Assembly (NCBI GenBank): GCA_016193315.1
Contig: JACPSJ010000001.1
Location: 91,981 to 155,980 of the forward strand
Origin: Candidatus Kerfeldbacteria bacterium
GTDB lineage: Bacteria > Patescibacteriota > Patescibacteriia > SBBC01 > CAIJZX01
DNA length: 64,000 nt
Direction of reading: 5' to 3'
Shown: in pieces, positions 16,284 through 62,849 of the stretch
Layout of the letters: the number at the start of each line of letters is the position of its first letter
How positions within the stretch are numbered: the first letter of the stretch is position 1
Program-made: the position numbers and the translations under genes
The notes under the pieces: model-generated
The model's input: only the letters and a program-made list of their open reading frames with translations
What the model was told of the DNA's origin: nothing
Database searches by the model: none

Positions 16284-16357
16284 GCCCCTGTAGTTCAATT
16301 GGATAGAACGGCCCCGTCCTAAGGGGCAAATCCTGGTTCAAGTCCAGGTAGGGGCAA
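16284..16357 (+). tRNA. tRNA-Arg (anticodon CCT)
   Basis: Cloverleaf built by hand: acceptor GCCCCTG/TAGGGGC, anticodon stem GCCCC/GGGGC, loop GTCCTAA. CCA not encoded. End coordinate is approximate (+/-2 nt). Confidence 0.75.
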
Positions 16358-16439
16358 AGCAAATGCGTATCTAAGACTCGTGTTTATCAGCACTGACGGG
16401 ATATAAATTGTCTGTAGACTTGCGTCCCGCGCCAATTTT

Positions 16440-16512
16440 GGGCCGTTAGCTCAGTTGGTAGAGCACTTCCATGGCATGGAAGGGGTCAGGAGTTCGAGTC
16501 TCCTACGGTCCA
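16440..16512 (+). tRNA. tRNA-Ala (anticodon GGC)
   Basis: Acceptor GGGCCGT/ACGGTCC with the G3:U70 Ala identity pair. Anticodon stem CTTCC/GGAAG, loop ATGGCAT. Confidence 0.85.
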
Positions 16513-16696
16513 GAATTGCGGCGGGAAGGCGACCGGTTCCACCCCGGTATGTTCCAGCAATGGCTCGGAAAGGTAAGGACTTTAGAGTCCAAACGGTCGA
16601 AAGCAGACACGACGTTCTTCCTATCGAGTTAGAACGTGATAAGGTTTCCAATGGTAATAACATAGATAATGCCATCCAAATGAGTAATTTTTTAGA

Positions 16697-16776
16697 TGTT
16701 CCACGAGGAACAATCAGGTATTAGGAGATGTTCCACGAGGAACAATCGCAAAAACGAAAATGTTCCACGAGGAACA
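16697..16776. promoter_or_regulatory. tandem array of three perfect 16-bp palindromes TGTTCCACGAGGAACA (20-nt conserved unit ATGTTCCACGAGGAACAATC/ATT) at exactly 32-bp spacing
   Basis: Copies at 16697-16712, 16729-16744 and 16761-16776. The first two share 20 identical nt. The third abuts the -35 of the promoter at 16777. Confidence 0.6.
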
Positions 16777-16805
16777 TTGACAAGAGAAAGGTAAAGTGTT
16801 ATAGT
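16777..16805 (+). promoter_or_regulatory. near-consensus sigma70 promoter, TTGACA-17-TATAGT
   Basis: TTGACA at 16777-82, a 17-nt spacer, TATAGT at 16800-05. No CDS downstream; the transcript would enter the tRNA-Ala fragment cluster. Confidence 0.5.
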
Positions 16806-16950
16806 ATGGGGAGTTCTCATTGATGACTCTTTGAATCAAGGTAATTTGCATAGTATCGCATTCGTACTCTCAAAAGCTGGGGATGTAGTTCACCCGTAAT
16901 TTCCTAGAGGGCGGGCAATGGCCGGGCATCTCATTCGTCCCCCACCATTT

Positions 16951-16990
16951 GGGCTCATAGCTCAATTGGTAGAGAACTGCATTCGACCAG
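16951..16990 (+). pseudogene. 5'-half tRNA-Ala-like fragment (acceptor + D arm + anticodon 5' stem, no T arm)
   Basis: GGGCTCATAGCTCAATTGGTAGAGAACTGCATTCGACC parallels tRNA-Ala(CGC) 17001.. through the anticodon loop, then diverges. Confidence 0.5.
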
Positions 16991-17000
16991 TACCTTTTCC

Positions 17001-17073
17001 GGGCCGTTAGCTCAGCTGGTAGAGCGCTGCATTCGCATTGCAGAGGTCAGCGGTTCGAATCCGCTACGGTCCA
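17001..17073 (+). tRNA. tRNA-Ala (anticodon CGC)
   Basis: Acceptor GGGCCGT/ACGGTCC (G3:U70). Anticodon stem CTGCA/TGCAG, loop TTCGCAT. Confidence 0.85.
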
Positions 17074-24918: not shown

Positions 24919-25073
24919 CCGTCGCACCGGATGGTTTTGACCTTGGTGATTTTGTGTTATCGTCAACTCACCCACACTCGTTCGGCAGGAACGACGTGGA
25001 GACGATGCACCTTCAACCTGCCCAACCACCACCGCATTGAATCCAAGCGAGGTGATGCAAAGGAGGAACAATC

Positions 25074-26411
25074 ATGTCGCTAGCCACCATCGAACTCCCG
25101 CAGCAGTTCCACCATGCGGTTGAGCACTGGCGTCGCCACTACATTCCGGACTTCGACGCGCTCATGGCGGCCTGGGATCGGTACTTCCCAAAAGACGAGC
25201 CATTCTGCCTGTGCGCGAAACTGGAACTCGGCACGTCTGAGGTCGTCACGATTGGCGATCATGCCGGTGAAAAGAAGCGCCTCAAGCCGGACGAGCTGAC
25301 CGAGGCTGAGGCCAAGCAACTCCTGGCCATCATCCGGGCTCAGGCTTCGACCGAGTTCGGCTCGATCCAGCAGCATCATGGTACCTTAGCTCGCGCCCAG
25401 GATGATGAGGATCGCTTCTGGATTCTCAGAGTGATGGCCGAGGAACTTCGCCATGGCTACCAGATGTTCCACCTGCTCCTTTCGGAAGACTGGAGCGGCG
25501 CTTCGGGAGGGACGAAGGGCGAAGACATGGTCGAGGAAGCGCTGTCGATGCAGACCGGCTCGCATGTGCTCGATGCCTTCAACCTGGATTTTGACTCTTT
25601 CCTCGACAGCCTGGTCTTTGCGGCGGTGATCGACCGGGTCGGCAAGTATCAGCTGACCATGCAGAAAGTCTGCGCCTACAAGCCGTTCGCCGATTCAATG
25701 CCGCCGATGCTGCGCGAAGAAGCGTTCCACCTGGCGGCTGGCGTGGTGCCACTCCGGCGGTGGGTCAAGCGGGCCGCCAAGGGCGATTCCCTCAACACCA
25801 TGGAAGCGGTCCAGCGGGCGATCGCCAAGTGGTATCCCCGCGGTTTGGAAATGTTCGGGGACGAGCGTGGCGGCAAGACGAACGTCGGTTATGGTTTCAA
25901 GGACATGGAGAATCGCCCGGCGCAAGATCTGTACATCGCCGAACTGGAGCGCATGCTGCGGGACCTGAACATACGTTTTATCCGCGCGCGTCACCCGGAG
26001 TGGTCGGCCGAGCAAGCTGAGCTGGCGCTCGACACGCTGCATCAGGAGCGCGTCAAGGTGGACGGTCTGCGTTTCGAGGAACTGTTGCGACTGCCCGACC
26101 GGCGGTTCTTCCGCCGCAAAGGCGAGCCAGCCTGGACGATGGTCGGTTTCGACGGCGAAGCGTTCGATGACGTCGAGGCGTACTTGCCTCACTTAGCGCG
26201 TCACCTGCCCGAAGCCTACCTCGCCAGCCGCGACATGCGGCTCTACGCTAACACACTACGGAAAGTAGTATCAGGTCAGCTGACCGCGGCCGAGGCCACC
26301 AAGGCCATGCCGAAGCTCAAACGCGTCGGCGGCGTCTGCCCATGTTCACGGGCCGTGCGGTGGGTGGTCGAGGATGAAACTTCGGAACTCAAGGATGCAC
26401 CTTCCCCCTAG
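25074..26411 (+). CDS. ferritin-like diiron-carboxylate protein of the BoxB/PaaA (phenylacetic-acid catabolic protein) type (tentative)
   Basis: 445 aa. Strong RBS AAAGGAGG. Two EXXH motifs (EELRHGYQMFH, REEAFHLAAG) spaced as in diiron oxygenase four-helix bundles. Size matches BoxB. Confidence 0.45.
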   Translation: MSLATIELPQQFHHAVEHWRRHYIPDFDALMAAWDRYFPKDEPFCLCAKLELGTSEVVTIGDHAGEKKRLKPDELTEAEAKQLLAIIRAQASTEFGSIQQHHGTLARAQDDEDRFWILRVMAEELRHGYQMFHLLLSEDWSGASGGTKGEDMVEEALSMQTGSHVLDAFNLDFDSFLDSLVFAAVIDRVGKYQLTMQKVCAYKPFADSMPPMLREEAFHLAAGVVPLRRWVKRAAKGDSLNTMEAVQRAIAKWYPRGLEMFGDERGGKTNVGYGFKDMENRPAQDLYIAELERMLRDLNIRFIRARHPEWSAEQAELALDTLHQERVKVDGLRFEELLRLPDRRFFRRKGEPAWTMVGFDGEAFDDVEAYLPHLARHLPEAYLASRDMRLYANTLRKVVSGQLTAAEATKAMPKLKRVGGVCPCSRAVRWVVEDETSELKDAPSP

Positions 26412-26435
26412 CCGAGAGGTTAGGGCTTTTCTTTA

Positions 26436-26467
26436 CCCCGCACCTTATGCGGTGCGGGGTTTCTTTG
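26436..26467 (+). terminator. rho-independent (probably bidirectional) terminator, CCCCGCACC-N6-GGTGCGGGG + TTTCTTTG
   Basis: 9-bp perfect GC-rich stem followed by a T-tract. An A-rich tract precedes it on the other side. Confidence 0.55.
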
Positions 26468-27215
26468 GCGCGATCATGAATTGACGCGGTTCTTTAGAAA
26501 TACTCCAAATGAGATCAAAGATACTGCGGAAGGCCTGGGAAATCGAAGGATCGGTGATCACGACCAGATAACGCCCGGCCATAGAATAAAGCCCGATGTT
26601 CTGTCCCCACATAGAAATATCAATGTCATATTTCATGTTCGGCGGCATGATCCGGATCCGGCGGTTTTTAGAGTTGTATTTTTTGGCATAGACGATATCG
26701 GCCGGGGTGGCAGTCACAATTTCCCAGGCTTGCTTGATTTCCCCCCGTCTGAGTTGTTGTTCGTAGGCAGCTAAGAGATCTCCGTACAGCTCAGTCAGAT
26801 TCTTTATATGGGAAATGAACCGATTCTCCGGGTGGTGGAACGTCGCCTCCATCCAGACTCTGCTGATATCTTCGACTCGATCGTAATAACGAATTTGCGG
26901 CTTGGTGCCGCCGCGATTTTCCAGGGCTCGTAACATCGGCAGTATTTCCAAGGCTACCTTTTCCTGCTGTTGGGCCGAGGCGAAGAGCTTCTGCGGTGAC
27001 TCAGGTATGTAGACGGTTTTCTTTCCCTCAAATGCTAAACCAGCCAGTTGTTTTCGCCGTAAAGATTCTAAGTCAAGATAGATGGTCGGTCGCTTCAGAC
27101 CGGTTTTTTTCGATAAGGACAGCGGCGTACCACGTCCCAGTTCAAGCAGGGAAGTGTAAATTCGTGCCTCGCGAGCCGTGAGACTGAGCTGGGCCAGAGC
27201 GTCATGGATATCCAT
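26445..27215 (-). CDS. TrmB-family transcriptional regulator (paralog of 5233..5982)
   Basis: 256 aa. N-terminal wHTH (LSLTAREARIYTSLLELGRGTPLSLSKKTGLKRPTIY). Confidence 0.6.
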   Translation of the reverse strand: MDIHDALAQLSLTAREARIYTSLLELGRGTPLSLSKKTGLKRPTIYLDLESLRRKQLAGLAFEGKKTVYIPESPQKLFASAQQQEKVALEILPMLRALENRGGTKPQIRYYDRVEDISRVWMEATFHHPENRFISHIKNLTELYGDLLAAYEQQLRRGEIKQAWEIVTATPADIVYAKKYNSKNRRIRIMPPNMKYDIDISMWGQNIGLYSMAGRYLVVITDPSISQAFRSIFDLIWSISKEPRQFMIAPKKPRTA

Positions 27216-27358: not shown

Positions 27359-27436
27359 GGCCGGTTCTGAAGTGAAGAACCTCTGGCACATCAGCTTCCC
27401 ATAATATGGAGAATGACCTTTACAAAGGAGAAAAAC

Positions 27437-28051
27437 ATGCGGCGCCTTCTCGTCACTCTGGCCACGGCGGTTTTTGTTGGACCCACGGCTTATGCTGGTT
27501 CAACCACGGTCAGTCGACCGCTGACCGTCATCCGGGGTGATCTCGACACGAGCTTCAAAGGGACGCTGCTCCAGATCGTGGGCGATCGCTACGTCTGGGA
27601 TGTGATTTGGTCCAATCAAGGCTGGGGCGAAGTCGATCTCGGCCTGAACGTGACCAAGGGCACCTGGTATCTACAAAGCTTGCTCGGCGTGGACTTCATG
27701 CAGGGCGAGCACCACCGTACGATCTGCGGTTCGTTCTACCCGCAGCTCTACGCCATCCACTATGGTCGGGTGCATGCGGAATCGTGGTACGTCGGCGCGA
27801 TACCGTTCCATGGAGCAGCTTCAACGCTCCACTCCTTCCGCGAGCTGGCGGTTCAGCAGATTGGGCGCGCACCGCTGTGGTTAGGCGGACAGTACGATGC
27901 GGCCGCATCCCAGGGGTCGGCGCCCAGTCATTTTCTCGGGCCGCTGGTGGAGTATGAGTTTCTGAAGGACTGCCGCCTGGGCTTCACGGTTCAGCGGCAG
28001 ATCGGCGGGCCGCAGTCGAAGTTCTTGCTGACAATAGTCACTGTCAGATGA
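27437..28051 (+). CDS. hypothetical secreted protein (signal peptide)
   Basis: RBS AAAGGAG before the ATG at 27437. MRRLLVTLATAVFVGPTAYAGS is a signal peptide. No domain call. Confidence 0.5.
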   Translation: MRRLLVTLATAVFVGPTAYAGSTTVSRPLTVIRGDLDTSFKGTLLQIVGDRYVWDVIWSNQGWGEVDLGLNVTKGTWYLQSLLGVDFMQGEHHRTICGSFYPQLYAIHYGRVHAESWYVGAIPFHGAASTLHSFRELAVQQIGRAPLWLGGQYDAAASQGSAPSHFLGPLVEYEFLKDCRLGFTVQRQIGGPQSKFLLTIVTVR

Positions 28052-28062
28052 GGAGGGATGCG

Positions 28063-28482
28063 ATGAAGGCAACTAAGCTAATACTCCTGCTATCCGGGTG
28101 CGTCTTGACCGCGGCGGCAATCATGTGGCTAGCCCTGAGGATATGGGTCGCGCATGAAACTCGCATGGCGCATAGCCGCGACCAGGAGTTAGCAAGAACC
28201 TGTCGGCGAATCATGATTCAGGAAACTCTGGAGTTCTCGGTTCGCCACCTGACCACTGCCGATTCAACATACGTTTACCCACCACAGCCGCACAACTACT
28301 GGAAGGTGGGGCCCTCAGAAGTAAAGAGCGAATGGATGGAACTTATTGGGGGCGATAGCCCAGACGGTGTCAGACCTCGCACACACGGATGGCTCGACGA
28401 GAAAAAAAGAATACTCTTTCTCAACGAGCCAGGGTATTACGAAAAGTTCATCGTCAGGGTTAAGGATCCTCCATGCTATTAG
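28063..28482 (+). CDS. hypothetical lipoprotein (lipobox LLSGC)
   Basis: RBS GAGGAGGG. MKATKLILLLSGC is a lipoprotein signal. Followed by the terminator at 28508. Confidence 0.5.
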   Translation: MKATKLILLLSGCVLTAAAIMWLALRIWVAHETRMAHSRDQELARTCRRIMIQETLEFSVRHLTTADSTYVYPPQPHNYWKVGPSEVKSEWMELIGGDSPDGVRPRTHGWLDEKKRILFLNEPGYYEKFIVRVKDPPCY

Positions 28483-28507
28483 CAAAATGCCAAGGCACGT
28501 TGAAAGT

Positions 28508-28535
28508 TCCAGCTCCTATACGGAGCTGGTTTTTT
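28508..28535 (+). terminator. rho-independent terminator
   Basis: CCAGCTCC-TATAC-GGAGCTGG followed by TTTTTTT. Confidence 0.6.
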
Positions 28536-28552
28536 TCATTGCGCAAGATTTT

Positions 28553-29431
28553 CTAGAGATTGGCCGCAAAGAATTTTAACAACCTTTGGCGATACTCTGG
28601 ATCCAACTCCCCATGCGTCAGGTGTTGGGGGAACCAGAATTCAGCCTGGGCATTGTGGCGGAGTGCCGTTTGCAGGCGGCGGGCATGATCGAAGGGGATA
28701 ACCTCGTCGCGCTGGGAGTGGATGAGGAGAACTGGTTTAGTCAGACTCTTGGCGGCCCGAAGCGGTGATCTGACGGCTGGGTCAACTTCAAGGAAAACAC
28801 TGGCGTATCTGGCGGTCAGCCAGCCGAGCGGATACTTCAGAATCGGAAAACGGTAGAGCGCGTGGGCTAGGAGATCAAGCCGGGCGTAACTCGAATCCGC
28901 CACCGCGGCTTTGATCTCCGGCGACCGCGGCGCGATCATCAAGGCCACCGCCCCACCCATGGAGAACCCCCAGACGCCGACTTGGTCGATGCCACGCTGC
29001 CGGAGATAACGGATGGCCGCCACTAGATCTTCGGTTTCCCGCAGGCCGACCGTAGAAATGGCCCGTTCGCTTTGCCCCAGGCCGCGGAAATCAAAAAGCA
29101 GGAGGGCATACTGATCATGAAGAAACGCCAGAGACGGCAGGATGTCACCCTTGTCAGCTGGATAGCCATGGAGTCCGATGATCGTTTTGGGCTGGGTTCC
29201 CTCGCGGCCTGGGATGAACCAGCCGCGGAGCGTCAGTCCGTCGGCCGTGGCAAAGCTGACGTCTTCATAGTCCAGCCCCAGGTCCCGGGGCGTGCCGGTG
29301 GAGATAATTTTCTCCGGATGCGTGGCCGTGTATAGCCCGAGCAGGGGAATGACCACGAGCAAGAAAACAATAACGACTACGGTCACCAGCCAGGGATTGA
29401 GCGGTGTGGTCGTCGGCGAAAAAGCGGCCAT
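28553..29431 (-). CDS. membrane-anchored alpha/beta-hydrolase
   Basis: 292 aa. N-terminal TM; GxSxG nucleophile elbow (GFSMGG). Confidence 0.75.
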   Translation of the reverse strand: MAAFSPTTTPLNPWLVTVVVIVFLLVVIPLLGLYTATHPEKIISTGTPRDLGLDYEDVSFATADGLTLRGWFIPGREGTQPKTIIGLHGYPADKGDILPSLAFLHDQYALLLFDFRGLGQSERAISTVGLRETEDLVAAIRYLRQRGIDQVGVWGFSMGGAVALMIAPRSPEIKAAVADSSYARLDLLAHALYRFPILKYPLGWLTARYASVFLEVDPAVRSPLRAAKSLTKPVLLIHSQRDEVIPFDHARRLQTALRHNAQAEFWFPQHLTHGELDPEYRQRLLKFFAANL

Positions 29432-29481
29432 CGTTTCTGATGGTACACCAATTGGCGCGATTAGCTAGAATCGGCCAGGGT

Positions 29482-29602
29482 TGACCCCGTTAGAAGCGGC
29501 TGAGATAAGCTTATGACCAAAAGTCCAATTTTTTTTAAACAACCTGCTTCATCCACAAAAGCTACGACCTATTCCGCTTCTAACGGGATAACGGGGTTGA
29601 CT
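29482..29602. repeat. inverted-repeat pair GTTGACCCCGTTAGAAGCGG ... CCGCTTCTAACGGG(ATAA)CGGGGTTGAC flanking ~75 bp of AT-rich DNA
   Basis: Same terminal motif as at 18218-18331. The right arm ends in TTGACT, which can serve as the -35 for the downstream gene. Confidence 0.4.
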
Positions 29603-29688
29603 TCATCACGCGTTCCAGCTAGGTTCCCGTTACTGTCACGGAGGGACAGCCGCACTTTCCAGTTGAACAATCCAAGAAAGGAGACGTT

Positions 29689-30858
29689 GTGGACGAACCG
29701 AAAGGCAGATTGCGCTCGGTTGACCCGCCACCAATCACTGGCCGCGAATCAACCACCGACCTTATCCGTCAGGCGATGGCGGCCGGGATCGGCCGCCAGT
29801 TCCGCGATTTCGTGGCCAGTCTCCAACTGTCGATCGATGAGGATCACACTCTGGTCTGGTCACTGGCCGGGATTGTATCAGTGGCTGGCTACACCCGCTC
29901 GTGTCTCATTCCGCTGATGCGGCGCGGGCTTATCCACGCCATCTCGACTACCGACGCCGTCGCCTATCATGATCTGCAAGGTTGGTGGCCGCGGTTCATG
30001 CCCGAGGCGGCCGAGGTCAAGCCCGGCGTGCCGGAGTTTTTCGAAGTTGACTCACGCGGCGACGATCGGGCGTATGCGGCCGACGGCATCGTCCGCGTTT
30101 ACGACATCGGCTTCGACGAAGGCCAGGGCTTGCTCGGGACCGACCGCGCGTTGATGCAGTTTGTGGAGAGGAACCGTGCTCTGCGAACAAACCTGACAAC
30201 CGCCGAGTTCTTCTGGCGTCTCGGTCAGGCCATGAAAGAAGTCGAGCTGGCCAATGGTCACGATCCGGCGGACAGCCCGAGTCTCCTGGTTCAGGCCCAT
30301 GTCCACCAGGTGCCGATTTTCTGCGGCGCGTTCTGGGATGGGTCGATCGGGCTCAACCTGGCTCGGTTCAACCTGTTCAATCCGCCGGGCCAGCAGGTGG
30401 TCATCGAGGGTGATCGTGATGTCCATCAGTTTGCCAGCCTGATGCATCAGACGATTGCAGTCGAAGGCCGCGGCATGACACTCGTCATCATGGGTGGCGG
30501 CGTCCCGAAGAACTACAGTCTGCAGATCGGTCCGTACCTGACCCAGATCTGCGGCTTGTCGGATGAGCTGCGGTACACGGCCGAACTTCAGATCTGCGAT
30601 GCGCCGGTGGACAATATGTCGCTGTCCTCGGCGCCGGCAGTCGAAGCTCTGACCTGGGGCAAGGTCCTCGAACGCACCCTGCCGCGAAACGTCTACGTTC
30701 GGGCTGACTGGTCGGTGTTGCTGCCAGTCTTGACTCAATCGCTGCTCGAGCAGGGGCGGCAGCTACCGGGTCGTCAGCTGTTCTTTACCCGTGAAGGCGC
30801 CCGCCAGGCGCTTGATCGGGCCATTCGTGAACGCGCCGAGGTTTCAGCCCCGGCCTAA
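29689..30858 (+). CDS. deoxyhypusine synthase family protein (DHS-like / homospermidine synthase-like)
   Basis: 389 aa. GTG start with RBS AAAGGAG. MGGGVPKN matches the DHS GGGxxK active-site region. Confidence 0.65.
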   Translation: MDEPKGRLRSVDPPPITGRESTTDLIRQAMAAGIGRQFRDFVASLQLSIDEDHTLVWSLAGIVSVAGYTRSCLIPLMRRGLIHAISTTDAVAYHDLQGWWPRFMPEAAEVKPGVPEFFEVDSRGDDRAYAADGIVRVYDIGFDEGQGLLGTDRALMQFVERNRALRTNLTTAEFFWRLGQAMKEVELANGHDPADSPSLLVQAHVHQVPIFCGAFWDGSIGLNLARFNLFNPPGQQVVIEGDRDVHQFASLMHQTIAVEGRGMTLVIMGGGVPKNYSLQIGPYLTQICGLSDELRYTAELQICDAPVDNMSLSSAPAVEALTWGKVLERTLPRNVYVRADWSVLLPVLTQSLLEQGRQLPGRQLFFTREGARQALDRAIRERAEVSAPA

Positions 30859-32389: not shown

Positions 32390-34459
32390 ATGGGATTTCT
32401 TTACTTCGCCTTGGTCATCAGTGTCCTGGGGTTGTTCATGACCTGGATTCTGGCCCGAGTCGTCGGCCGGCAGGCGGCGGCCAGCGCCGCCATGGAAAAG
32501 GTGGCGGCGGCCATACGATCCGGGGCCGCGGCTTTTCTCAAACGCCAGTACACGACCATCAGCTGGATCGCCCTGGCAGTGGCCGCAGTTATTCTGCTCG
32601 CCTATCTGGCCAATGGCAAACCCTTGGTTGCCTGGCAGACTTCGATCTCGTTTTTGATCGGCGCGGCCGCGTCGGGCCTGGCCGGATACATGGGCATGTT
32701 CGTTTCCGTCCGGGCCAACGCCAAGGTGGCGGCCGCGGCCGATCGCCGCGATCTCAACAAAGCCCTGACCATTGCTCTACGGGGCGGGGCGGTCGAAGGC
32801 ATGCTCGTTTCGTCGTTGACGCTACTCGGCTTGGCCGCCCTGTTTTTGGTCTATTCGCAGTGGCTGCATTTCGACCCCCGCGCCATCCCCAGCGCCATCA
32901 TCGGTTTCGGGTTTGGCGCTTCGCTGGTCGCCCTTTTTGCCCAACTCGGCGGCGGCATTTACACCAAGGCGGCTGATGTCGGCGCCGATTTGGTAGGCAA
33001 AGTCGAAGCCGGCATCCCCGAAGACGATCCACGTAACCCGGCGGTCATTGCCGACTTGGTTGGGGATAACGTTGGCGATTGCGCTGGCCGCGGCGCTGAT
33101 TTGTTCGAGTCAACGGCTGCGGAAAACCTCGGCGCCATGATTCTCGGCGTGGCCCTGTTCCCGGCCTTTGGTTTGCCAGGCATCCTCTTCCCGCTGGTGG
33201 CCCAAGCTATCGGCATGATCGCTTCAGGCACGGCCGTCCTCACCGTCAGGGTCAAGAACAATGAGGATCCGATGAAGGCGCTCAATCGAGGTTTCTACCT
33301 GGCGGCTTTGCTCGGCGCCGTCGGCCTGTACGTCGTCACCCAGCTCATGCTCGGTGACCAGGCGCTGTGGTTCTTTGCCGCCGGCCTCGTTGGGATCGCC
33401 ATGAGCATCGTTTTCCTATTCTTGACGCAGTACTACACCGACCATGCCTATCGGCCAGTGAAAGACATCGCCCGCGCCAGCGAAACTGGTCCGGCCACCA
33501 CGATTATTTCTGGGCTGTCGGTCGGTTTTGAAAACGTGGCGCCGGCAGTGCTGGCCATTGGCGGGGCCTTGTGGGGCGCTTTCTCTCTTGGTGAGGCCAG
33601 TGGCCTAGAACACGGCGGTTTGTATGGCACGGCCGTGGCCACCATCGGCATGCTCATGACTGCCATGTATGTGTTGGCCATGGACACCTTCGGTCCGATC
33701 ACCGACAACGCCGGCGGGATAGTGGAAATGGCAAATGCCTCGGAAGAAACGCGGAAAATCACTGATCGACTCGATGCAGTTGGCAACACGACTAAAGCGT
33801 TGACCAAAGGCTACGCTGTTGGATCTGCCGCACTGGCTGCCTTTTTACTTTTTACTGCTTACCTCGAACAAGTCCACATCACCGTCGTCGACCTAGCTAA
33901 CATTAAAGTATTCATCGGTGCCTTCGTTGGTGCGATGCTGGTCTTCCTGTTCTCCAGTTCAGCCATGCGCGCCGTGGGTCGGACCGCGGGTTACATCATC
34001 GAGGAAGTCCGCCGACAGTTTCGGGACCAGCCGGGCATCATGGCCGGGACTGAGCAGCCTGACTACGGTCGAGCCGTTGACATCACCACCCGGGGGGCGC
34101 TGCGGAACATGGTGCTGCCAGGAACGATGGCTGTAGTGGTACCGATTCTTGTCGGTCTCATTCTCCGCGCCGAAGCCGCGGCTGGAATGCTGATGGTCGG
34201 CACCATCACCGGCGTCATCATGGCCCTGGTGATGAACAACGCTGGCGGCGCCTGGGATAATGCCAAGAAATTCATCGAATCCGGCGAGTTCAAAGACAGT
34301 CACGGCGTAGTCCAAGGCAAGAAGACTCCGGTTCATGCGGCGGCCGTGGTTGGCGATACCGTCGGTGATCCGTTTAAGGATACGGCCGGGCCGAGCTTGC
34401 ACGTGCTGATTAAATTGTTGGCGACACTGACCTTGGTCCTGGCGCCGCTGTTTACTTAA
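32390..34459 (+). CDS. hppA: membrane-bound proton-translocating pyrophosphatase (K+-independent type, Lys in GNTTKA)
   Basis: 689 aa. Multiple TM helices; signature GDNVGDCAGRGADLFES. Confidence 0.9.
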   Translation: MGFLYFALVISVLGLFMTWILARVVGRQAAASAAMEKVAAAIRSGAAAFLKRQYTTISWIALAVAAVILLAYLANGKPLVAWQTSISFLIGAAASGLAGYMGMFVSVRANAKVAAAADRRDLNKALTIALRGGAVEGMLVSSLTLLGLAALFLVYSQWLHFDPRAIPSAIIGFGFGASLVALFAQLGGGIYTKAADVGADLVGKVEAGIPEDDPRNPAVIADLVGDNVGDCAGRGADLFESTAAENLGAMILGVALFPAFGLPGILFPLVAQAIGMIASGTAVLTVRVKNNEDPMKALNRGFYLAALLGAVGLYVVTQLMLGDQALWFFAAGLVGIAMSIVFLFLTQYYTDHAYRPVKDIARASETGPATTIISGLSVGFENVAPAVLAIGGALWGAFSLGEASGLEHGGLYGTAVATIGMLMTAMYVLAMDTFGPITDNAGGIVEMANASEETRKITDRLDAVGNTTKALTKGYAVGSAALAAFLLFTAYLEQVHITVVDLANIKVFIGAFVGAMLVFLFSSSAMRAVGRTAGYIIEEVRRQFRDQPGIMAGTEQPDYGRAVDITTRGALRNMVLPGTMAVVVPILVGLILRAEAAAGMLMVGTITGVIMALVMNNAGGAWDNAKKFIESGEFKDSHGVVQGKKTPVHAAAVVGDTVGDPFKDTAGPSLHVLIKLLATLTLVLAPLFT

Positions 34460-53589: not shown

Positions 53590-53763
53590 GGGGAGGTGGA
53601 CCGCAATCCCGCCCCACATCGGCCCCAACGAGATAGCCTTTCATACGGCCACGTAGCCAAGGGGTAAGGCAGGAGTCTGCAAAACTCCTATTCGCGGGTT
53701 CGATTCCCGCCGTGGCCTCAAACTAGGAAAATGGGCCGATGTGGGGCGGGACGAATCCCCTCC
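53590..53763. repeat. inverted repeat (GGAGG...TCCCGCCCCACATCGGCC / GGCCGATGTGGGGCGGGA...CCTCC) bracketing tRNA-Cys
   Basis: 18-nt perfect complementarity (53607-53624 with 53735-53752), plus outer GGAGG/CCTCC; the tRNA sits in the loop. Confidence 0.5.
53647..53718 (+). tRNA. tRNA-Cys (anticodon GCA)
   Basis: Acceptor GGCCACG/CGTGGCC, discriminator U. Anticodon stem GGAGT/ACTCC, loop CTGCAAA. Confidence 0.85.
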
Positions 53764-53820
53764 AGGCCTGAATGCGGGAGTAGTTTCCGGCGAAGCCGGA
53801 TCCGGCTTCGCCGGACAGCA

Positions 53821-53965
<145 letters not shown>

Positions 53966-54047
53966 CAAGGAAGAGGTCGTCCCGCACCGGACGGTGCGGG
54001 ATCTCCCGCTCCAAACCATGAATCTCGCACTAGACGAGCGACACCCC

Positions 54048-54134
54048 GCCGGAGTGGCGAAATTGGTAAACGCACGGGACTTAAAATCCCGAGGAGGAAA
54101 CTCCCTGTGGGTTCGATTCCCACCTCCGGCACCA
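54048..54134 (+). tRNA. tRNA-Leu (anticodon TAA), long variable arm, CCA encoded
   Basis: Acceptor GCCGGAG/CTCCGGC + A + CCA. Anticodon stem CGGGA/TCCCG, loop CTTAAAA. Variable arm AGGAGGAAACTCCCTGT. Confidence 0.85.
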
Positions 54135-62566: not shown

Positions 62567-62637
62567 GCGGGTATCGTATATCGGTATTACCTCAGCTTTC
62601 CAAGCTGATGAGAGGGGTTCGACTCCCCTTACCCGCT
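62567..62637 (+). tRNA. tRNA-Gly (anticodon TCC)
   Basis: Acceptor GCGGGTA/TACCCGC, discriminator U. Anticodon stem TCAGC/GCTGA, loop TTTCCAA. T arm AGGGG-TTCGACT-CCCCT. Confidence 0.85.
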
Positions 62638-62849
62638 CGGGGGCTACAGGCAGCAGCGGGATCCTCGCCGCCAGACGGCCCCGTGCCTCGGCTCGTCGCC
62701 GCCGGACAAGCTGATGCCGCCCCGCACCAGTCCCCGATTCATTCGGGGTTCGGTGCGGGGCTCCCTGCTTTCAGGAGAGATTTAGTTTCGCGGCCGGATC
62801 CCGCCAGGATTATTGTAATTGACGAGGAGCTGGAGAAAGCTGACGGTGA

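Follow-up and report, generated by a model that had tools for sequence, protein, structure and literature searches.

An orphaned BoxB-like diiron gene of Candidatus Kerfeldbacteria is best described as a member, probably acquired horizontally, of a GNAT-linked, cysteine-tailed sister clade of BoxB

The iron ligands of BoxB are E120, E150, H153, D211, E240 and H243, and its substrate benzoyl-coenzyme A (CoA) is hydrogen-bonded by Q116 in a pocket shaped by T119, S123, F193, F203/206 and T210 (PMC5489048). BoxB and PaaA are the closest characterised relatives of the protein studied here, whose gene lies in a stretch of 64,000 nucleotides of a Candidatus Kerfeldbacteria genome (GenBank assembly GCA_016193315.1, contig JACPSJ010000001.1, positions 91,981 to 155,980), referred to below as the window:

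25074..26411, + strand: open reading frame (ORF) of 445 amino acids (aa) for a BoxB-like diiron protein, a putative oxygenase (ORF call, profiles, fold model and alignment)

We found that this protein was BoxB-like over its full length, yet it was neither BoxB nor PaaA by the equivalog cutoffs. The most fitting description is that of an orphan, probably acquired horizontally, from a clade that is sister to BoxB, that is linked elsewhere to a GNAT acetyltransferase gene and that bears a cysteine-containing C-terminal tail.

The family assignment, in which we have high confidence, came from profile and fold comparisons. In the search against Pfam PF05138 (PaaA_PaaC) that an earlier note on this DNA had proposed, the protein scored 36.8 bits, above the gathering score of 28.5, and the same family was detected in 119 of the 120 homologs listed. 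The protein failed the equivalog profiles of both BoxB (TIGR03225, 59 bits against a cutoff of 499.1) and PaaA (TIGR02156, 31.3 bits against 280). When the single sequence was compared with the PDB, the closest entries were SSO1313 (4MUD, E 6e-15, 24% identity) and BoxB (3PER, E 8e-14), and when a profile of 70 family sequences was used, BoxB was by far the best match (E 2.5e-49, profile positions 55-381 against BoxB 84-430), followed by SSO1313 (E 6.5e-31) and PaaA (E ~1e-10). Two AlphaFold2 models, computed from alignments of 10 and 70 sequences, had mean predicted local distance difference test (pLDDT) scores of 89.7 and 90.7 and predicted template modelling (pTM) scores of 0.87 and 0.88, respectively. 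Foldseek placed eleven BoxB chains on top of the PDB list (about 470 aligned columns, template modelling (TM) scores of 0.63/0.60 and 19-21% identity), and SSO1313, PaaA and PaaC ranked after them, matching only a core of about 230 residues. The earlier note had taken the protein for a ferritin-like diiron member of the BoxB/PaaA family, which holds once it is narrowed to a separate BoxB-like clade that fails both equivalog cutoffs. The outcome named there as speaking against this assignment, a profile match to a non-diiron family, was not what we observed, the matches being to PF05138 and to BoxB.

Alignment with BoxB placed the six iron ligands at E94, E124, H127, D187, E216 and H219, and the equivalents of four substrate-contact residues at Q90 (BoxB Q116), T93 (T119), S97 (S123) and F169 (F193). 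All ten positions were invariant in 211 family sequences. In the AlphaFold model the six ligands had pLDDT values above 90 and were distributed over four separate helices (E94 in 77-102, E124 and H127 in 111-137, D187 in 176-197, and E216 and H219 in 203-235). The two EXXH motifs previously reported were thus found again as E124-H127 (EELRH) and E216-H219 (EEAFH), but they are separated by 92 residues and not by the approximately 80 given at that time. The structure prediction suggested in the same note returned a complete E, ExxH, D, ExxH set on the four bundle helices of the model, so that the six ligands would form a shared diiron site with a predicted metal-site geometry.

As judged from sequence, the gene belongs to a previously uncharacterised sister clade of BoxB, and a literature search found no study of a GNAT-linked, Cys-tailed BoxB-like clade. 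Membership was defined here as at least 50% identity, possession of C47 and of the C-terminal CPCS, and nesting in the clade tree. The Kerfeldbacteria protein had 52-74% identity to the other clade loci, bore cysteine at all four positions of the motif described below (CCCC pattern) and was nested in the Eisenbacteria subclade. It formed a singleton cluster in a database of 5.8 billion proteins, with its nearest relative at 74% identity, and the full-length family was reduced to a handful of clusters in a 50%-identity library. After the identical record, which came from an 857-kb contig of a Kerfeldbacteria MAG, the matches had 67-74% identity and came from bins labelled Eisenbacteria, Limnocylindria and Udaeobacter. 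Four loci labelled Limnocylindria, Udaeobacter or unbinned (L003-L006) were mutually syntenic, with the gene order pabB-pabC, FrsA-like, GGDEF, GNAT, diiron gene, phosphorylase, GGACT, PIG-L and DUF885, and clustered with Eisenbacteria in the tree; some of these taxonomic labels are probably binning errors. Because of this mutual synteny, the cross-phylum identity of about 70% among the top matches was first discounted. A wider scan of GTDB with one genome per species showed that the cross-phylum spread of the clade is real. The best 80 of the 580 relatives found in that scan were all uncultured metagenome-assembled genomes (MAGs) of Eisenbacteria, Chloroflexota/Limnocylindria, Acidobacteriota (mainly Thermoanaerobaculia), Myxococcota, Vulcanimicrobiota, Latescibacterota, Planctomycetota and Blastocatellia, and none of these 80 was a genome of the candidate phyla radiation (CPR).

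The context of the gene was compared in 86 loci, in which genes were called by a per-locus codon-position model with start trimming and neighbouring genes were clustered; the clusters annotated included all those present in at least 7 of the 86 loci. Loci that seemed to lack a GNAT gene were rechecked with the GNAT hidden Markov model (HMM) on six-frame ORFs, and most of them proved to be start-codon miscalls. A GNAT acetyltransferase gene of about 155 aa (PF00583, 57 bits) was located immediately upstream of the diiron gene on the same strand, and the two genes often overlapped in ATGA. Of the 74 loci outside the CPR that belong to the >50%-identity clade and had enough upstream sequence, 73 had it upstream by the GNAT HMM, 70 of them adjacent to the diiron gene and three at a distance of up to 2.3 kb. 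It was the only neighbour linkage that crossed phylum boundaries. In one metagenomic representative (P0192, 438 aa), residues 90-168 form a GNAT domain and residues 261-376 correspond to the beginning of the diiron protein; it represents either a natural fusion of the two or a frameshift where their stop and start codons overlap.

The partners located downstream were clade-specific: 34 loci of Acidobacteriota and Myxococcota had proline dehydrogenase (ProDH), loci of Eisenbacteria a glycogen-phosphorylase-like gene, and loci of Chloroflexota a luciferase-like monooxygenase and CoxG. ProDH, LipA, FHA-GGDEF, S9 peptidase and phosphorylase were rejected as functional partners, because each of them was limited to a single phylum-level clade and therefore reflects clade-specific synteny. 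In a subset of the Chloroflexota loci the diiron gene was followed by a gene of the benzoate-CoA ligase family that passed TIGR02262 (588 bits against 375), a molybdenum hydroxylase with its best match to the 4-hydroxybenzoyl-CoA reductase alpha subunit (427 bits, below the 995-bit cutoff) and CoxM- and CoxG-like genes. The same subset had a second diiron paralog of about 240 aa, similar to PaaA and SSO1313 and with the full E, ExxH, D, ExxH set (L019, 9301-10023; L047, 2729-3454; 101 bits to PaaA), which is close in size to SSO1313 (235 aa) and is placed between the long BoxB-like gene and the benzoate-CoA ligase family gene; it could form a second subunit or act as an oxygenase in its own right. 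No BoxA- or PaaE-type reductase, BoxC of the enoyl-CoA-hydratase type or PaaB-E gene was found among the annotated neighbour clusters of the 86 loci.

The second hallmark of the clade is a pair of CxC elements at the two ends of the protein, C45 with C47 and C422-P-C424-S. C47, C422 and C424 co-occurred in every one of the 193 complete sequences from the >50%-identity clade and were jointly absent from the distant clades (Blastocatellia, some Planctomycetota and representatives at 36-43% identity), which also lacked the GNAT gene. Position 45 was a cysteine in the Eisenbacteria/Chloroflexota branch, including the Kerfeldbacteria protein, giving the CCCC pattern in 154 of the 193 complete sequences, and in the Acidobacteriota branch it was occupied by E, K, Q, R or D. 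The tail GG-x-CPCS-x-x-VRWV was at least 90% conserved. The pattern fits either a site for a metal or for redox chemistry with cysteine ligands or an element for docking of a partner, which AlphaFold would be unable to place without its ligand, and C47 together with the C-terminal cysteines probably forms an additional metal or redox site. The feeding of electrons from this putative site to the diiron centre, by analogy with rubrerythrin, may also be considered.

In the reduced genome of this Kerfeldbacteria bacterium, a member of the CPR, the gene was solitary, as had been reported before. There were no reductase, ligase, hydratase or PaaB-E/BoxA/C-type genes among the genes called within about 6.5 kb on either side. 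The whole window contained no homolog of the usual neighbours of the clade and no GNAT HMM match, and no GNAT remnant was found in the spacer upstream of the diiron gene. The features that surround the ORF were the following:

24919..25073, + strand: spacer of 155 nt between the YraN/UPF0102 gene and the diiron gene
25060..25066, + strand: Shine-Dalgarno sequence AAGGAGG, 7 nt 5' of the ATG of the diiron gene (direct sequence reading)
26406..26434, + strand: intrinsic terminator 1 of the diiron gene, an 8-bp stem (hairpin 26406-26425) followed by CTTTTCTTT
26435..26467, + strand: intrinsic terminator 2 of the diiron gene, a 10-bp stem with 8 G-C pairs (hairpin 26435-26460) followed by TTTCTTT
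26445..27215, - strand: convergent gene for a TrmB-like regulator of 256 aa, with a helix-turn-helix at residues 7-69 (PF01978, 35.3 against 25.6 bits)

A comparison with other CPR genomes suggested how this solitary state arose. The CPR locus L089 was syntenic with the window for thioredoxin, GDH (58% identity), RNase HII, a methyltransferase (57%), YraN/UPF0102 (52%), TrmB (54%), NusA (80%) and the H+-pyrophosphatase (80%). In L089, however, YraN and TrmB lie in convergent orientation and abut each other with no diiron gene between them, which suggests that a single gene was inserted at the diiron locus. No homolog of the diiron gene was found by tblastn in any of the three CPR loci. Two sequencing runs gave the same junctions of the Kerfeldbacteria gene in independent assemblies, which makes a chimera unlikely. 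In a neighbour-joining tree the Kerfeldbacteria protein grouped within the Eisenbacteria subclade and not with those of Chloroflexota or Acidobacteriota, and nucleotide similarity to the loci of the donor clade (69-74%) was limited to about 25090-26376 of the window. The simplest reading is an old horizontal insertion of a single gene between yraN and the trmB-like gene, from an Eisenbacteria-like donor and with the GNAT gene left behind; the direction of the transfer would be from an Eisenbacteria-like lineage to Kerfeldbacteria. The missing upstream GNAT gene is accordingly a feature of the context that was lost on transfer and not a property of the protein. The suggestion that the protein would be functionally novel because it stands alone has to be modified in the same sense: no recurrent reductase partner was found family-wide, but nearly all the other members are paired with GNAT, and the lone state seen here comes from the transfer of a single gene.

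The copy was intact. Its G+C content at third codon positions (GC3) was 0.76, the range of the host being 0.57-0.80, and it deviated at none of the 129 near-invariant columns of the family, some other members deviating at up to 10 of them; it does not appear to be decaying. The ORF and its textbook ribosome-binding site are as first described. In the 155-nt spacer a candidate weak promoter, TTGACC (24937-24942) separated by 15 nt from TGtTATCGT (24955-24963), could be read from the letters, but it was not called by the consensus scan. Terminator 1 starts at the last codon of the diiron gene and contains its stop codon, and the loop of terminator 2 contains the stop codon of the TrmB-like gene (26445-26447). 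The two tandem hairpins had a combined free energy (dG) of -36 kcal/mol (z -4.1 against shuffles), and each was followed by a U-tract on the + strand only, an A-rich run following the stem on the - strand. They thus provide the diiron gene with a strong tandem terminator of its own. As a bidirectional terminator they are non-canonical, given the A-rich run on the TrmB side and the position of the TrmB stop codon within a loop; the earlier note was right about the strength and needs correction about the bidirectionality. Rfam gave no match in or around the diiron gene. An imperfect 16-nt direct repeat, at 25004-25019 (GATGCACCTTCAACCT) and 26394-26409 (GATGCACCTTCCCCCT) with 14 of 16 positions matching, brackets nearly the whole ORF; it was rejected as an insertion scar, as about 0.5 such pairs are expected by chance in 2 kb according to our estimate.

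The TrmB-like regulator does converge on the diiron gene, but the link implied by that arrangement fell away, since the orthologs of the regulator adjoin no such gene. Its homologs at 47-54% identity were found only in Patescibacteria and Kerfeldbacteria genomes, and it is a native CPR gene, a mere neighbour that forms no conserved module with the diiron gene. It scored 16-20 bits against the NCBIfam models TrmB, TrmBL1 and TrmBL2 (cutoffs 530-650) and, by these scores, is not an ortholog of the archaeal sugar regulators; its C-terminal 185 residues or so had no family match. The block between the TrmB-like gene and NusA (27413-30858) contained two ORFs without Pfam match (212 and 144 aa), an alpha/beta-hydrolase on the - strand and a deoxyhypusine-synthase-like gene (PF01916, 120 bits), and five proteins of the block had no tblastn match in the syntenic L089, so the diiron region is a variable spot with several gene gains or losses. 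The 689-aa ORF directly after NusA (32390-34459, + strand) encodes a membrane H+-translocating pyrophosphatase and shares 80% identity with the PF03030-bearing gene of L089; NusA and the pyrophosphatase gene were adjacent in both CPR genomes. In another Kerfeldbacteria genome (GCA_043799405.1; L087, 1525-7809, - strand) the TrmB ortholog adjoins a gene of 2094 aa with SpvB, TcdB-middle and RHS/YD-shell toxin-complex domains, which is polymorphic-toxin-like and very large for so small a genome. The two low-GC stretches of the window (GC 0.47-0.48) carried tRNA clusters, Arg-CCT, Ala-GGC and Ala-CGC at 16284-17073 and Cys-GCA, Gly-GCC and Leu-TAA at 53647-54134, and a tRNA-Gly-TCC gene was located at 62567-62638.

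The explanation that best accommodates these results is that the gene encodes an intact diiron enzyme of the BoxB sister clade, a CoA-thioester oxygenase that is GNAT-linked elsewhere and that was acquired as a single gene; we give it a probability of roughly 0.6. The catalytic part of this explanation, drawn by analogy with BoxB, seems to us only slightly favoured. The ferritin-like four-helix bundle would hold a carboxylate-bridged diiron centre, an aryl- or acyl-CoA thioester would be bound as BoxB binds benzoyl-CoA, and O2 together with two external electrons would serve to epoxidise or hydroxylate the acyl part. Since no dedicated reductase gene recurs, the electrons presumably come from a general donor, which could be a ferredoxin or similar protein, possibly acting through the cysteine site. 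In most hosts the GNAT protein would then use the oxygenated CoA ester, or it would supply the substrate ester.

Several observations weigh against this explanation. The substrate and the chemistry are extrapolated from BoxB at only 19-21% identity, the N-terminal 55 residues or so and the C-terminal tail differ from BoxB, and T210 of the BoxB pocket is replaced by I186. The cysteine tail had low confidence in both AlphaFold models (pLDDT 35-60), and the alignment of 70 sequences did not order it. The GNAT protein is generic, its nearest solved relatives being the uncharacterised PA4534 and YpeA. The aromatic-CoA ligase context was limited to a few Chloroflexota loci, the neighbours elsewhere being of the housekeeping type (ProDH, LipA, glycogen-phosphorylase-like) and uninformative on the substrate. 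The 64-kb host window is without GNAT, ligase and reductase, which leaves the role of the protein in this host obscure. As a formal alternative to the insertion, the diiron gene could have been lost from the lineage of L089 rather than gained here.

A broader proposal, which we regard as speculative, is that the GNAT protein and the diiron oxygenase constitute an unrecognised two-enzyme system that is widespread in uncultured soil phyla. The oxygenase would carry an auxiliary metal site with cysteine ligands, would for that reason need no dedicated reductase, and would act on an acyl- or aryl-CoA; the GNAT protein would move the product to an amine or supply the substrate, and the Kerfeldbacteria copy would be a rare CPR capture of an O2-dependent oxygenase, kept under selection for a stand-alone role.

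Among the other explanations, the one that fared best, although we find it improbable, is that the gene is a functionless passenger, an orphan acquired horizontally that is inoperative without GNAT and is decaying. The partner gene is indeed missing here, as in just one of the 74 testable non-CPR clade loci, the window has no ligase or reductase, and the protein is a singleton whose nearest relative has 74% identity. Against decay, the ORF was intact with no deviation at the 129 near-invariant columns, it had a consensus ribosome-binding site and tandem terminators, and its GC3 fell inside the host range. Moreover, the 69-74% nucleotide identity that stops at the ends of the ORF points to a long divergence in which no conserved residue was lost, part of which possibly took place in an unsampled donor lineage.

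Less credible is a rubrerythrin-like scavenger of O2 or peroxide which, in an oxygen-sensitive CPR host, would be fed with electrons by the cysteines and would need no organic substrate. C45, C47, C422 and C424 could by analogy make a rubredoxin-like site beside the diiron bundle, and no pathway that would supply a substrate was present in the window. However, the substrate-contact equivalents Q90, T93, S97 and F169 were invariant, a conserved pocket that this reading leaves out of account, no rubrerythrin appeared among the sequence or fold matches, the cysteine tail was neither confidently folded nor docked in the models, and the family-wide linkage to GNAT points to acyl-CoA chemistry.

The database names 'phenylacetate-CoA oxygenase subunit PaaI' and 'benzoyl-CoA 2,3-epoxidase subunit B' suggest a genuine ortholog of BoxB or PaaA that serves the aerobic breakdown of benzoate or phenylacetate, which we consider very unlikely. 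The PF05138 match, the position of BoxB and PaaA as closest characterised relatives and the benzoate-CoA ligase family gene that adjoins a few Chloroflexota relatives are in line with orthology. These are outweighed by the equivalog scores (59 against 499 and 31 against 280 bits), by an identity to BoxB of only 19-21%, by the lack of BoxA-, BoxC- and PaaB-E-type genes around the locus and among the annotated neighbour clusters, and by two clade hallmarks, the GNAT partner and the cysteine tail, that are not described for BoxB or PaaA. The N-oxygenase and R2-like options of the earlier note, taken here as an N-oxygenase of the AurF/CmlI type and as a radical or Mn/Fe protein resembling R2lox or RNR R2, can practically be dismissed, because beyond the generic pair of ferritin-like diiron motifs nothing spoke for them, there being no Pfam match at E <=0.01, no AurF, CmlI, R2 or R2lox in the family-profile search of the whole PDB at E <=10, and none in the Foldseek list ahead of the desaturases and methane/phenol hydroxylases, themselves at E >0.04.

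The clade matters beyond this locus. Thousands of its metagenomic proteins are automatically annotated as PaaA, 'PaaI' or BoxB, and such labels feed claims of aromatic degradation by Eisenbacteria, Acidobacteriota, Chloroflexota and even CPR bacteria; because the clade fails both equivalog tests and is without the pathway partners, these claims are unsafe. The near-universal GNAT pairing and the co-conserved cysteines make it a tractable biochemical target, a BoxB-type oxygenase that may dispense with a BoxA- or PaaE-type reductase. CPR bacteria do not usually have O2-dependent oxygenases, and a clean single-gene insertion that shows no decay, with a known empty site in a relative, offers a natural experiment on which parts of a two-gene module work alone. 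The wider value of this analysis would thus lie in correcting the over-annotation of an abundant soil family as PaaA/BoxB and in pointing to a GNAT-oxygenase pair with a possible built-in auxiliary metal site.

Four known systems can be set beside the Kerfeldbacteria protein and its clade. Rubrerythrin is a diiron four-helix bundle fused to a Cys4 rubredoxin-like domain. The clade resembles it, in concept only, by having a diiron bundle and a cysteine-rich terminal element able to relay electrons, but its cysteine spacing is CxC...CPC instead of two CxxC pairs, its fourth cysteine gives way to E, K, Q, R or D in Acidobacteriota, and there is no sequence or fold match between the two. SSO1313 of Sulfolobus solfataricus (4MUD), a structural-genomics 'ring oxidation complex / phenylacetic acid degradation-related protein' that is itself uncharacterised, has the core bundle in common; its 235 aa comprise the core only, and it has no counterpart of the BoxB-like regions at the two termini or of the cysteine motif. 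PaaA and PaaC, subunits of the phenylacetyl-CoA 1,2-epoxidase of E. coli and Klebsiella (3PVR, 3PW8, 4IIT; TIGR02156/TIGR02158) share PF05138, the four-helix-bundle diiron core and, presumably, the class of CoA-thioester substrates, but only the core of about 230 residues matches (TM 0.44, E ~1e-10), the Kerfeldbacteria protein has 445 aa with BoxB-type extensions against about 310 aa, and it is not accompanied by PaaB, C, D and E genes. BoxB of Azoarcus evansii (3PER, 3PM5, 3PF7, 3Q1G; TIGR03225), which is the oxygenase component of benzoyl-CoA 2,3-epoxidase, differs by its N-terminal region, which is shorter and of another kind in the clade protein, by the clade's CPCS tail with C47 and its GNAT partner, and by its BoxA reductase and BoxC ring-cleaving hydrolase, neither of which was found near the clade gene among the annotated clusters of the loci examined. 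The features shared with BoxB are homology over nearly the full length, a fold with a TM score of about 0.6, the six ligands including the unusual Asp, the residue hydrogen-bonded to the thioester (Q116), the aryl-pocket residues T119, S123 and F193, and the C-terminal LP-x3-F-x-R-x2-G motif.

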